Below, piece after piece: positions 1,309 to 9,410 of a stretch of 20,107 nucleotides of DNA. The position numbers and the translations under genes were made by a program. Source of the stretch: Candidatus Hermodarchaeota archaeon (GTDB lineage Archaea; Asgardarchaeota; Lokiarchaeia; Sigyniarchaeales; SOKP01); NCBI GenBank assembly GCA_048885925.1, contig JBHLLG010000051.1, forward strand, positions 1 through 20,107. Reading direction: 5' to 3'. Below the pieces are notes generated by a model. It searched no databases and was not told the origin of the DNA. It was given only the letters and a program-made list of their open reading frames with translations. The stretch's first letter is position 1. The number at the start of each line of letters is the position of its first letter.

Positions 1309-2214
1309 ATAATTTCTGATTTATTAGAAGACTTTCTAATAGCAAAGGAAGTGGAGGAAGGTTGTTCTTCTTCAACCATTAAAGCGTATCGCTATGATCT
1401 TCAAAAATTTATTGAGCTTGTAGGAGATCTACAAGTGAATTCTCCACTAGTACGCCAAAAAATACGATTGTTTTTAAAGAAACTAAATGATATGAATTAT
1501 ACCAAAAAAGGGATTGGGAGAAAAATAGCTTCTTTGCGTTCTTTTTTTAAATTCTTGATACTTAATGAATTTATATCTAAAGATCCTATGAGTACCATCA
1601 AATCTCCAAAAATAAAATTGGAAGAAAGTTTACCAAAGTTTTTAAGAATTAATGATATTGAGAAAATTTTCAAGAAACTAAAAGATAGGCGGCTTTTCAA
1701 CTCACGAAAGAGTGAACGATATTATTTGATTGTTAGATTGTTATATTCAACCATGGCACGTGTGAGCGAGTTATGTAGTATTAAAATTCGGGATATTGAC
1801 TTCGAAAGAGGGTATATTCAATTGCGTGGAAAAGGAAATAAGCAACGAATTGTACCTGTGGATCAGAAAACCTTAGAAATATTTAAAGAGCATCTTAAAG
1901 ATCGGTTAAGCTATGATTCTGAAGATTATCTATTAGTGAATACACGAAACCAAAAATTAAGCCCTCGAGTAGTACAAGCAGATATTAAAACCATTAAAGA
2001 AAAATGTGGATTTAATGTTGGAATAACACCGCATACCTTAAGGCATTCTGGGGCGACTCATTTAAGAAGAGCAGGAATGGATATTTCTGAATTACAAGAT
2101 ATTCTAGGTCATAGTTCACCTAATACAACACGAATTTATGCCAAAAATGATATAAGTAGGCTAAAAGAATCTTATAGTACCATGCATCCTCTGAATAATC
2201 TAGATAAAATTTAG
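1303..2214 (+). CDS. xerA: XerA/XerC-D family tyrosine recombinase
   Basis: N-terminal SAM-like core-binding domain (STIKAYRYDL, RKIASLRSFFKFL) and a full catalytic set: R (ARVSEL), K (GKGNK), HxxR (HTLRHS), H (LGHS), Y (TRIY). Confidence 0.9.
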   Translation: MEIISDLLEDFLIAKEVEEGCSSSTIKAYRYDLQKFIELVGDLQVNSPLVRQKIRLFLKKLNDMNYTKKGIGRKIASLRSFFKFLILNEFISKDPMSTIKSPKIKLEESLPKFLRINDIEKIFKKLKDRRLFNSRKSERYYLIVRLLYSTMARVSELCSIKIRDIDFERGYIQLRGKGNKQRIVPVDQKTLEIFKEHLKDRLSYDSEDYLLVNTRNQKLSPRVVQADIKTIKEKCGFNVGITPHTLRHSGATHLRRAGMDISELQDILGHSSPNTTRIYAKNDISRLKESYSTMHPLNNLDKI

Positions 2215-6929: not shown

Positions 6930-7841
6930 TTAGAGAGTATCTTCTTGATCAGTAACTTGATCATAATTTTTGGAGTTTTTCTCGAGATAACTAATCCTTT
7001 TTTCTAAAATTGTCATCGTCTCTATAATATTATTTAGCACTTTATTAGTCTCTCTGATTTCATATTGAAGATCTCCGAGTTGATTAAGTAAAAATGTCAA
7101 AACTTTAGATTCTTTGACTGGTTCTGTTAACCAATTAATAATATTTTGTATTAACTTTCGATTATCCAAAGAATTTATACCTATCTGTGAATTTGAAGTA
7201 AATATGTCTATATCACCGAGTACAACAATTTTTCCTTGTCCAAATTCAGCATAAGCTCCAATAATATGTTGTTTTTCTTCTTCCTTTGTCCATTCTTGAG
7301 AAGTATTGTTATAAATTTCTGACCAAACAGAATGTTCATTTGTTTTTAATATTGGTTTTACCCCTTTACTTAAAAATAAGGAACAAGAGCCTCCGATTAC
7401 AACTTCTCTCAAATTTTTTGTAATCTGATGCTTTAAAAAATCTTGGAGATGTAGGATACTTGAACAATTTTGGTTGGTATGATTCGCTTCTTTAATAATA
7501 TTTTTCTCAAAAAAGATACCAAATTTTCCTGCAATATCATTCAAATTGGTTTTTTGAAGATAATCCGCACCATATTCGCTCAATAGTAATAATCCACCAC
7601 CACTTCTAACATAATCCACAATATTTTTAATTTCTAAGCTTGAAAAAAAATCATCAATTGGATTACCAATAATCAATAGATCTATATTTTCTAATAATTC
7701 TTTTGTAATTTGGCCATTTTCGTTCTTTTTAATCTTAACATCTAATCTTTTTAGAAGATTTGTAAACTCCTTAAATTCTTCATCATTTGGGTTTAACATT
7801 TCATTATGAGTGAGATCAATTAGAACCGTCTTCTTTAACAT
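6930..7841 (-). CDS. GIFT (GldG/IFT52)-like, class I glutamine-amidotransferase-fold domain with a C-terminal coiled coil
   Basis: VLIDLTHNE start, DLLIIGNP, YVRSGGGLLLL, TNLNDIAGKFGI, GKIVVLGDIDIF and DNRKLIQNIINWL match the GIFT/DUF4350 pattern. The C-terminal tail is heptad-rich. Confidence 0.7.
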   Translation of the reverse strand: MLKKTVLIDLTHNEMLNPNDEEFKEFTNLLKRLDVKIKKNENGQITKELLENIDLLIIGNPIDDFFSSLEIKNIVDYVRSGGGLLLLSEYGADYLQKTNLNDIAGKFGIFFEKNIIKEANHTNQNCSSILHLQDFLKHQITKNLREVVIGGSCSLFLSKGVKPILKTNEHSVWSEIYNNTSQEWTKEEEKQHIIGAYAEFGQGKIVVLGDIDIFTSNSQIGINSLDNRKLIQNIINWLTEPVKESKVLTFLLNQLGDLQYEIRETNKVLNNIIETMTILEKRISYLEKNSKNYDQVTDQEDTL

Positions 7842-7947
7842 TTTTTTTAAATCCCAAATGACAATTAGCTTAGTTTTCTTTTAGAAAGGGCTTTTTTATT
7901 ATGATAACGTAATAAAATAAAGTTAAGACTTACAAGAAAATTCAAAT

Positions 7948-7974
7948 ATAAAAATCATTACCTATGATTTTTAT
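7948..7974. promoter_or_regulatory. Perfect 11-5-11 inverted repeat (ATAAAAATCAT tacct ATGATTTTTAT) in the divergent promoter region
   Basis: Arms 7948-7958 and 7964-7974 are exact reverse complements, midway between the divergent GIFT-like gene and purA. Confidence 0.45.
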
Positions 7975-8077
7975 TTCCGTTCCAACCTACCAAAAATTTT
8001 TTAAACTGTATACAATACTCTTTTTTGGATTAAAATAAGAAATTGATTATACAAAAAAATCAAAAGGAATATGAGAC

Positions 8078-9410
8078 ATGAGTAATACTATTGCTGTTAT
8101 AGGCCTTTCGTGGGGAGAATAGTTGAGCAGTTCGCATACTATCCCTATACGAAGGCAAAGGCAAATTTGTTGATTTTTTAGCACAGAAAGTGGATATAGT
8201 TGTTAGATATAATGGAGGAAATAATGCAGGTCATACGATAAATGCTAATGGAATCAAATATAAATTTAAATTAATGCCTTCAGGAGCTCCCTTAGAAAAA
8301 GAAGGAGTAATAGCTAATGGCTGTGTCGTTGATCCAAAAGTTTTAATTGAAGAAATTGAAAATCTCAAGAAATTAAACAAATCGATAAACTTAAAATTAA
8401 GTTCTACAGCTCATGTAATTTTTCCCTTTCATCGCATTTTAGATGGATTAGAAGAAAAAACAAAAGGTGATTATGCTGCAGGTACCACTAAGAGAGGAAT
8501 CGGTCCTGCATATTCTGATAAAGCAGCTCGCTGGGGTTTAAGAATCTTTGACTTGGTAAATCCTGAAATATTAAAACCAAAGCTAGAAAAATTATTTAAA
8601 ATTAAAAAAGACCTTATACATGTTTATGATCCAAGTTGGGTTGGTAATTTTGAAACGATTTATGAAGAATATAAGTCTTATGGGGAAAAATTAAAACCTT
8701 ATGTTATTGATACGGCTTATTACTTGAATAAGGTTATTGATTCTGGTAAAAAAGTTCTTTTTGAAGCAGCTCAAGGGAATCTTTTAGCACTTGATTTTGG
8801 GATGTATCCATATGGGACTTCTTCTAATGCTAATGCTTTAGGTATTTGTGCTGGAACAGGTATACCCCCAAAAAAAATTGGAAAAATAATAGGAATAGTG
8901 AAAGCATATACCTCACGGGTTGGTGAGGGTAAATTTCCCACAGAATTATTCAATGATATAGCTGAAAAAATTCGGGAGCAAGGTAAAGAATACGGTACTG
9001 TAACTGGAAGACCTAGAAGAGTAGGATGGTTAGACCTTTTTAATATTAAATATGGAATGATTATTAATGGTGTTGATAAAATTGTTATTACTCTTTTAGA
9101 TGCTTTGCAAGGAGTTAATCCTATTAAAATATGTACTGGTTATAAATTAGATGGTGAAGTTCTCGAAAGTTGGCCAATTCAACATGAGATAATTGAAAAA
9201 TGTACTCCCATTTATAGAAGTTTTGAAGGTTGGAGTGAAATATCTAGAGAAAAATGGAGAGAAATCGCAAAGAAGGGGTATGATGCATTACCAAGTACTA
9301 TGAAAATATACCTTCAAGCAATTAAGGAAGAGCTTAAAACGGATATTGCAATGATTTCAATTGGTCCTGATCGAGAAGAAACTATAGTTTTAGATTCTAA
9401 TATTTGTTAA
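8078..9410 (+). CDS. purA: Adenylosuccinate synthetase, spliced: join(8078..8117,8149..9410), 433 aa
   Basis: ATG 8078 reads MSNTIAVIGLSWGE*. Removing 31 nt gives MSNTIAVIGLSWGDEGKGKFVDFL..., the PurA P-loop, continuous with GGNNAGHT, GTTKRGIGPAY and EYGTVTGRPRRVGW. The ORF-track start at 8190 lacks the P-loop. Confidence 0.93.
8118..8148 (+). other. Putative 31-nt relaxed BHB (BHL-type) pre-mRNA intron splitting the catalytic Asp codon (G|AC)
   Basis: Central helix GGGG(8112-8115)/CCCU(8143-8146), bulges AGA (8116-8118) and AUA (8147-8149), intron stem AUAGU/ACUAU, exon helix UUCG/CGAA plus GCC/GGC with U8111 unpaired. Cutting after bulge nt 2 removes 8118-8148 and regenerates GAC. Confidence 0.82.

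Follow-up and report, generated by a model that had tools for sequence, protein, structure and literature searches.

An intron in the pre-mRNA of cbf5 was reportedly described in Crenarchaeota by Watanabe and colleagues in 2002, and bulge-helix-bulge (BHB) introns in mRNA are already known, although they are very rare. The present case concerns purA, the adenylosuccinate synthetase gene, on a 20,107-bp stretch of DNA (the window) that is the entire contig C51 of the draft genome of an Asgard-type archaeon (G000). The coding region of this single-copy gene contains a 31-nt insert at positions 8118 to 8148, which is very probably an archaeal BHB intron that is excised by EndA at both bulges and ligated by RtcB. 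To the known examples, the purA case adds multiplicity, uniform small size, and presence/absence polymorphism.

Short BHB introns occur in the coding region of cbf5 in Crenarchaeota (Yokobori et al. 2009, PMC2738675). According to that paper, the cbf5 intron is, like the purA insert, a short BHB element of a coding region that is often relaxed in motif and patchy in distribution, with inferred gain and loss, and its hosts are archaea with many noncanonical tRNA introns and a hetero-oligomeric EndA. The differences are the gene (purA), the host (an Asgard-type archaeon), the number of genes apparently interrupted (at least five in one genome), and the size of the inserts (all 28 to 32 nt); the cbf5-like gene of G000, which contains a TruB_N domain, is an uninterrupted open frame of 342 amino acids (aa). 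In Haloferax volcanii, HVO_1309 has a BHB intron in its 5′ untranslated region that is a substrate of the splicing endonuclease in vivo and in vitro (PMC7714728), and this 2020 report names cbf5 as the only other example outside tRNA and rRNA until then. The HVO_1309 intron lies in an untranslated leader, whereas the purA insert splits a codon, and splicing would be needed for any protein. Archaeal tRNA and rRNA introns share the motif definition (two 3-nt bulges and a 4-bp helix) and the presumed enzymes (bioRxiv 10.64898/2026.10.13.758758). The purA substrate differs from them in being an mRNA, without a tRNA body to aid recognition, and in that the exonic half of its motif is constrained by coding.

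HAC1 and XBP1 mRNAs undergo unconventional cytoplasmic splicing, in which IRE1 cuts and RtcB or Trl1 ligates; the XBP1 intron is 26 nt long. The likeness to purA consists of the spliceosome-independent, enzymatic removal of a very short coding intron, the resulting change of frame, and the involvement of a tRNA ligase. However, the endonuclease is IRE1 rather than the tRNA-splicing endonuclease, and HAC1/XBP1 splicing is a proven regulatory switch, whereas regulation by the purA insert is not supported.

The G000 assembly comprises 3.9 Mb in 181 contigs, with 29% G+C, 95% completeness, and 4.4% estimated contamination. The purA gene extends from 8078 to 9410 on the forward strand, and the insert (AATAGTTGAGCAGTTCGCATACTATCCCTAT) splits an Asp codon after its first base. 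TGG (8111-8113) and GGA (8114-8116) are followed by the lone G at 8117; beyond the insert, AC (8149-8150) precedes GAA GGC AAA GGC AAA. Read without splicing from the ATG at 8078, the frame encodes MSNTIAVIGLSWGE (14 aa) and ends at TAG (8120-8122), while removal of 8118-8148 by script generates a 433-aa open reading frame (ORF) that contains WGDEGKGK. No entry in the ORF table spans the P-loop, and the longest (8190..9410) begins at a GTG downstream of it. Exon 2 matches the adenylosuccinate synthetase profile PF00709 with an E value of 8.9e-152 over positions 10 to 416 of 416, so that the first nine profile positions remain for exon 1. Membership of the PurA family is indicated by this full-length match, and the GDEGKGK P-loop exists only once 8118-8148 is removed. 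In a structure search, which matched adenylosuccinate synthetases, exon 2 aligns to residues 14 to 425 of E. coli PurA (1ade_A); as its first residue, the Glu after the split codon, falls on residue 14, the split codon corresponds to Asp13, which we take to be a catalytic residue. The preliminary description of this DNA had equated the split codon with the catalytic Asp13, and the alignment confirms the position.

The junction is ambiguous by 1 nt in the sequence, since A8118 and A8149 are identical, but the geometry of the predicted fold provides a unique boundary. In G000, a 4-bp central helix (H), two 3-nt bulges on opposite strands, and both flanking helices are present, with one unpaired U in the outer helix (h) (Table 1). 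A BHB-type insert splitting this codon had been proposed in the preliminary description, and all of the pairings that it listed occur in the sequence. With each bulge cut behind its second base, the junction becomes TGGGGAG/AC, encoding WGD, identical to the intronless orthologues. The boundary at 8118-8148, also selected earlier by geometry, is supported by the contiguous TGGGGnGAY GAR of 87 intronless orthologues in the family, which the join reproduces. The exact site of the cut within the bulge is general background on the endonuclease and is cross-checked here solely by the restored junctions of purA and four other genes. Pair probabilities in G000 are 0.63 to 0.77 for the four H pairs and 0.7 to 0.95 for most inner pairs. 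The fold alone is only moderately unusual, with a minimum free energy (MFE) of −19.8 kcal/mol and a z score of −2.31, and 5 of 200 shuffled sequences fold equally well. The evidence that the insert did not arise by chance therefore comes from its relatives.

A protein search of 40 related genomes located purA in 36. Among loci of the same genus, 9 of 21 carry an insert of 30 or 31 nt at exactly this site and 12 read uninterrupted as TGGGGnGAY GAR; the insert occurs in none of nine purA loci of the sister family, all of which are uninterrupted. A pattern search of 399 genomes of the phylum (TGGGGNG, 12 to 42 nt, then AYGARGGNAARGGNAA) matched 30, of which 29 belong to the family of G000 and are distributed over genera g1 (17 of 53 genomes), g22 (9 of 42), g15 (2 of 6), and g21 (1 of 10). 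The sole match outside the family (G301) was a false positive, an ordinary in-frame purA encoding HFGDEGKGK. Within the family, purA was located in 120 of 134 genomes and 116 sequences were compared: 29, from four genera, contain an insert of 30 to 32 nt, and 87 are intronless. Without splicing, translation of every insert-bearing gene would meet a stop codon, which lies within the insert in 28 of the 29.

The 29 inserts belong to clearly distinct sequence types. In all of them, the exonic GGGG stands opposite the four bases that precede the final two of the intron, and in 27 all four pairs of H are formed. On the intron side, CCCC, CUUU, and CUCU still pair with the coding-constrained GGGG, while ACCU, found in two genomes, breaks one pair. 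In an alignment of all 29 sequences (A2), 98.1% of H cells are paired and five of five pairs of the inner helix (h′) have changed on both sides. Overall, 80.7% of A2 cells are paired, compared with 33.7 to 51.2% when the 3′ partners are slid by one to three columns; the corresponding values in a nine-sequence alignment (A1) are 92.2% and 34.6 to 48.4%. None of 500 column shuffles of A2 reached the observed covariation score, and the helices thus covary among orthologues, which the preliminary description had named as a check on its proposal. Constraint also extends to the exonic base of the bulge: all 29 insert-bearing genes encode the Gly ahead of the split Asp by GGA, compared with 33 of 87 intronless family genes. 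The contrast is inflated by relatedness, although at least six separately supported groups can be distinguished among the inserts.

The interrupted genes remain under purifying selection. Pairwise dN/dS (NG86) has a median of 0.086 among insert-bearing genes (135 pairs) and of 0.087 among intronless ones (76 pairs), and the G000 gene has a value of 0.091 against 26 other insert-bearing genes. The exon 1 peptide, ending in IAVIGLSWG, is conserved in all 29 insert-bearing orthologues through synonymous changes (e.g., CUU UCG versus UUA AGU), and 28 of these genes have no further stops or frameshifts; the exception (G224) has a second BHB-like insert. The earlier view that the gene is intact and free of pseudogene decay is consistent with these values. 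A search for a second intact purA, likewise proposed earlier, found only one copy in G000 by tblastn and genome search of the 95% complete assembly, and genomes of the family as a rule have a single purA match.

Two loci in relatives deserve mention in their own right. The second insert of the G224 purA (locus L052, G224:C126, ~1625-1655, forward strand) is 31 nt long and lies directly after the His codon of NAGH/T; a central helix GGUC/GGCU fits by eye, and the inner helix is irregular. G048 has two full-length intronless purA genes (C26:145985-147238 and C55:3444-4697) that occupy different parts of the tree and may represent a duplication or a mixture of two strains.

The purA insert does not appear to be isolated. 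At least five protein genes of G000 are apparently interrupted by BHB inserts of 28 to 32 nt: purA, a cooS-like gene, a ferredoxin-domain gene, the gene for ribosomal protein uL11, and a JAB/MPN gene (Table 1). The four additional cases derive from a scan of G000 for BHB geometry and from its comparison by tblastn with 1.6 Mb of sequence of G021, a congener, and each was confirmed independently of the scan. In the cooS-like gene (carbon monoxide dehydrogenase/prismane type), exon 1 covers positions 3 to 457 and exon 2 positions 458 to 512 of PF03063. The orthologues of 28 of 30 congeners are contiguous at PEY/MEQK and 2 of 30 contain an insert; that of G042 is a different 32-nt sequence with a compensated inner helix. 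In the ferredoxin-domain gene, the join restores CNGCAFCIRAC (CxxCxxCxxxC), and the flanking exons form an 8-bp outer helix; 29 of 30 orthologous loci are contiguous and the insert is present in G000 alone, where it may be a recent gain. The join in uL11 gives GINIK, as in G021, whose contiguous ORF matches the Pfam families Ribosomal_L11_N and L11, and that in the JAB/MPN gene gives PGFKVMM, compared with a contiguous PGFKIMM in G021. In all four genes, cutting after the second base of each bulge yields the contiguous sequence of the orthologue. The cut rule used for purA is therefore independently checked, because the same rule restores four other genes exactly.

In the comparison with G021, 1,477 of its ORFs had hits, and among these three inserts were specific to G000 and none to G021; each genome therefore has few such inserts. 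The scan serves as a candidate finder only, because its loose BHB-like hits join two ORFs no more often (190 of 53,745; 0.35%) than do random positions (2,182 of 537,450; 0.41%). A control with reversed sequence (273,896 versus 273,808 hits) is invalid, as reversal keeps hairpins. The ORF-gain filter of the scan missed purA, whose exon 1 is short, and uL11 was missed through a mismatch next to H. Three scan hits were rejected as false positives: C22:17210-17264 joins two neighboring ATPase genes, C21:20878-20908 joins the neighbors MoeA and MoaB, and C19:7038-7064 lies in frames that look noncoding. A search of G000 for the conserved core of the purA intron returned only the purA copy with a strict motif and six hits, five of them unrelated, with a loose motif (≤4 substitutions); the insert is therefore not a multicopy repeat.

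Other loci recorded during these searches are BHB-like candidates that would join two open frames at C61:3108-3150, C18:15411-15470, C19:29858-29898, and C91:3097-3128. Their hosts include membrane proteins that lack a Pfam match, a gene resembling FmdE, and what may be an N-terminal exon. Three orthologues of the ferredoxin-domain gene (G016:C24, G023:C29, and G042:C14) have frames of 117 to 135 aa, compared with ~185, and may be interrupted elsewhere.

G000 encodes both enzymes of the proposed pathway. A single EndA-type gene (C22:7621-8214) matches PF02778 (E value of 8e-8) and PF01974 (E value of 7e-29), and a single RtcB gene is located at C12:26362-27669 (E value of 5e-171). ARAGORN called introns in 19 of 31 tRNA genes, and the detection of only 31 tRNA genes suggests many multiply interrupted tRNA genes beyond the reach of this program. 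Calibration of the cut rule on tRNA introns failed in that ARAGORN single-intron calls, which are unreliable for multiply interrupted tRNAs, did not match BHB hits. Earlier studies report heavily interrupted tRNA genes in Asgard archaea (bioRxiv 10.64898/2026.10.13.758758) and a broad-specificity (αβ)2 EndA with an L1 loop (PMC5829648). The host is termed an Asgard-type archaeon because of its actins, the IFT52-GIFT-like gene adjacent to purA, and the size of the phylum sample. Four actin-family genes are present in G000, the best with an E value of 3.5e-132 over positions 4 to 408 of 410.

The sequence, structure, covariation, site conservation, purifying selection, and enzyme genes are observed, and from them we infer cutting, ligation, and the identity of the enzymes as follows. 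In the pre-mRNA, the 4-bp central helix would arise from pairing of the exonic GGGG of the Trp-Gly codons with CCCU of the intron and would lie between two opposed 3-nt bulges, with the intron hairpin inside this helix and, in G000, an exon-exon helix outside it. EndA would cut after the second base of each bulge, i.e., after 8117 and 8148, and RtcB would join the exons at TGGGGAG/ACGAAGGC, restoring GAC, the codon of the P-loop Asp in GDEGKGK. Active adenylosuccinate synthetase would then come from the spliced mRNA only, as the unspliced message terminates after 14 codons. The earlier statement that AMP synthesis depends on splicing would apply to the de novo route only.

Several observations weigh against this interpretation. 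The exact BHB structure of G000 (−14.0 kcal/mol) lies 5.8 kcal/mol above the MFE structure, which absorbs parts of both bulges, and in the RNAalifold structure H is two pairs longer, reaching into the 3′ bulge. Two orthologues (G041 and G051) have one G·A mismatch in H, and in G040 and G004 the inner helix begins a few bases further in rather than right after the bulge. The outer helix, defined as at least six consecutive pairs with a 1-nt bulge, is found in only 11 of 29 genes (G000 included), with 64.8% of its cells paired in A2, and genes that encode Leu-Ser as UUA or CUA AGU lack it in that register; most copies are therefore relaxed BHB (HBh′-like) motifs. A tblastn search of G000 with the EndA ORF (E < 1) found no second EndA subunit, leaving a single EndA-type gene, and the tolerance of relaxed motifs in G000 would depend on the architecture of this enzyme. 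No RNA run was listed for the stretch, and four metatranscriptome runs from the studies whose DNA runs contain it gave 0 contigs (likeness 80).

The energetic cost of the exact fold, the prevalence of relaxed motifs, and the missing second subunit would favor removal of the insert from the RNA by a different endonuclease/ligase pair, or an insert that is a self-processing BHB look-alike. This has a small probability, since divergent inserts have conserved the BHB core itself (a 4-bp H, an inner helix, and two 3-nt bulges a fixed distance apart), the cut rule also holds in four other genes, and EndA and RtcB are encoded in G000. Size further opposes self-processing, as no self-splicing intron as small as 31 nt is known: group I and II introns, which are hundreds of nucleotides long, and curated RNA families were rejected, with no Rfam match at E ≤ 1 within 7800-8500. 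Decay of purA into a pseudogene through a small insertion, with AMP supplied by salvage or by an unassembled second copy, is very unlikely. The frame is indeed broken with an immediate stop, and 95% completeness in 181 contigs leaves a second copy conceivable, but dN/dS equals that of intronless genes, 28 insert-bearing genes have no other lesion (G224 being the exception), exon 1 is conserved as protein, a single purA per genome is usual, and the insert has been kept through speciation in clades of nine, nine, three, and two genomes.

The bypass in T4 gene 60 involves a short untranslated coding gap that starts with a stop codon and a hairpin and requires matched take-off and landing codons. 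The purA insert is also a short gap with an early stop and a hairpin, and in G000 the GAA at 8117-8119, directly before the TAG, matches the GAA at 8151-8153 on the other side of the hairpin. This resemblance to gene 60 is superficial: the hop from GAA to GAA, the only one possible, would delete the Asp and yield WGEGKGK, and none of the other 28 orthologues has, for the codon preceding its stop (GCU, GUU, GAU, CCC, and others), a matching landing codon that restores DEGKGK. Stop read-through with frameshifting would lengthen the P-loop by ~10 residues, and the inserts change by covariation of RNA pairs rather than as a peptide. Handling of the insert in translation by either route is therefore as improbable as pseudogene decay. 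An assembly or sequencing artefact or contaminant DNA is the least probable explanation. The assembly is a metagenome-type draft with some estimated contamination, but 29 separate assemblies carry diverged inserts at the same site, which excludes an assembly artefact, and the G000 purA groups within its own genus clade beside G010. Excision as a BHB intron by EndA and RtcB is thus preferred.

Table 1. Features of purA and its predicted BHB fold in the window (contig C51), and predicted inserts in other genes of G000 (contig given)
Feature	Position	Strand	Basis
purA exon 1: ATG + 13 codons (MSNTIAVIGLSWG) + G of split Asp codon	8078..8117	+	Sequence
Predicted BHB-type intron, 31 nt, phase 1, in-frame stop TAG 8120-8122	8118..8148	+	Sequence, geometry, covariation
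purA exon 2: AC completes GAC (Asp), then EGKGK...; stop 9408-9410	8149..9410	+	PF00709, 1ade_A
Outer exon-exon helix h, 5′ strand CUUUCG; partner 8150-8155; U8111 unpaired	8105..8110	+	
Central 4-bp helix H, exon strand GGGG; partner 8143-8146	8112..8115	+	
5′ bulge AGA; predicted cut 8117/8118	8116..8118	+	BHB geometry
Inner intron-intron helix h′, 5′ strand AUAGU; partner 8138-8142	8119..8123	+	
Apical hairpin, GC 8127-8128 / GC 8134-8135, 5-nt loop	8127..8135	+	92.6% of cells paired across orthologues
Inner helix h′, 3′ strand ACUAU	8138..8142	+	
Central helix H, intron strand CCCU	8143..8146	+	
3′ bulge AUA; predicted cut 8148/8149, junction G/AC restores GAC	8147..8149	+	BHB geometry
Outer helix h, 3′ strand CGAAGG	8150..8155	+	
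cooS-like (CODH/prismane) insert, 32 nt, canonical hBHBh′	C4:38336-38367; locus L069:2337-2368	+	BHB scan, Pfam, congeners
Ferredoxin-domain (4Fe-4S) insert, 32 nt, canonical BHB	C31:18957-18988; locus L063	−	BHB scan, congeners
uL11 (ribosomal protein) insert, 28 nt; H GCAU/AUGU, bulges AAA/AGA	C20:5250-5277	−	Comparison with G021
JAB/MPN (WWHSHPGF) insert, 31 nt, BHB	C15:18539-18569	−	Comparison with G021

Beside purA, the gene at 6930-7841 on the reverse strand of the window matches the IFT52 GIFT domain (E value of 1.3e-13), which is otherwise typical of eukaryotic intraflagellar transport proteins.

The history of the insert was examined on a purA tree of 121 rows (IQ-TREE quick search, LG+G4), from which the partial sequences of G004, G237, G216, and G229 were left out. 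Insert state changes at least eight times on this tree, with six changes forced by well-supported branches, compared with 25.3 changes when labels are shuffled; the count is unpolarized, and the gene tree only approximates that of the species. Clades of nine g1 genomes (including G000), nine g22 genomes, three g1 genomes, and two g15 genomes each inherited the insert, and close sisters lack it. Common descent with several precise losses is suggested by UUA.., GCA...GC., and UAACCCUAU, which occur in both the main g1 type and the g22 type. The types of G040/G004, g15, and g21 are too different for descent to be judged, and gains and losses at purA cannot be separated with the present data.

The presence of the ferredoxin-domain insert in 1 of 30 loci and of the cooS insert in 2 of 30, the distinct purA insert types of different clades, and the second purA insert in one genome would fit a turnover of these inserts. 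A tentative hypothesis, which we consider somewhat less likely to be right than wrong, is that this Asgard family carries turning-over BHB mini-introns of 28 to 32 nt in protein genes that are both gained and lost. The data are compatible with site-directed reinsertion into exonic half-BHB sites, e.g., by a reversed EndA/ligase reaction followed by reverse transcription. The regulatory switch suggested in the preliminary description is not supported, because 87 of 116 family purA sequences, among them close sisters, lack the insert, and similar inserts occur in four unrelated genes of G000. The insert resembles an element that is tolerated and turns over, rather than a control device specific to purA.

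A literature search, which did not reach the supplements of PMC5829648 and of the 2026 preprint, found no report of a purA intron or of a BHB intron in any Asgard mRNA. Gene callers will misannotate such genes, as illustrated by the longest purA ORF, which begins at a GTG past the P-loop, and the present and absent alleles of the family are natural material for studying the gain and loss of BHB introns. In G000, whose lineage has actins like those of eukaryotes, production of an essential metabolic enzyme would apparently require that a 31-nt insert be removed from its mRNA. The host is related to the ancestors of eukaryotes, and its further interrupted genes include one for a ribosomal protein. 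Splicing of mRNA by protein enzymes, following the logic of HAC1 and XBP1, may thereby extend to Asgard archaea. If the turnover hypothesis is true, the closest prokaryotic relatives of eukaryotes would possess an active, spliceosome-independent system that both creates and removes mRNA introns.

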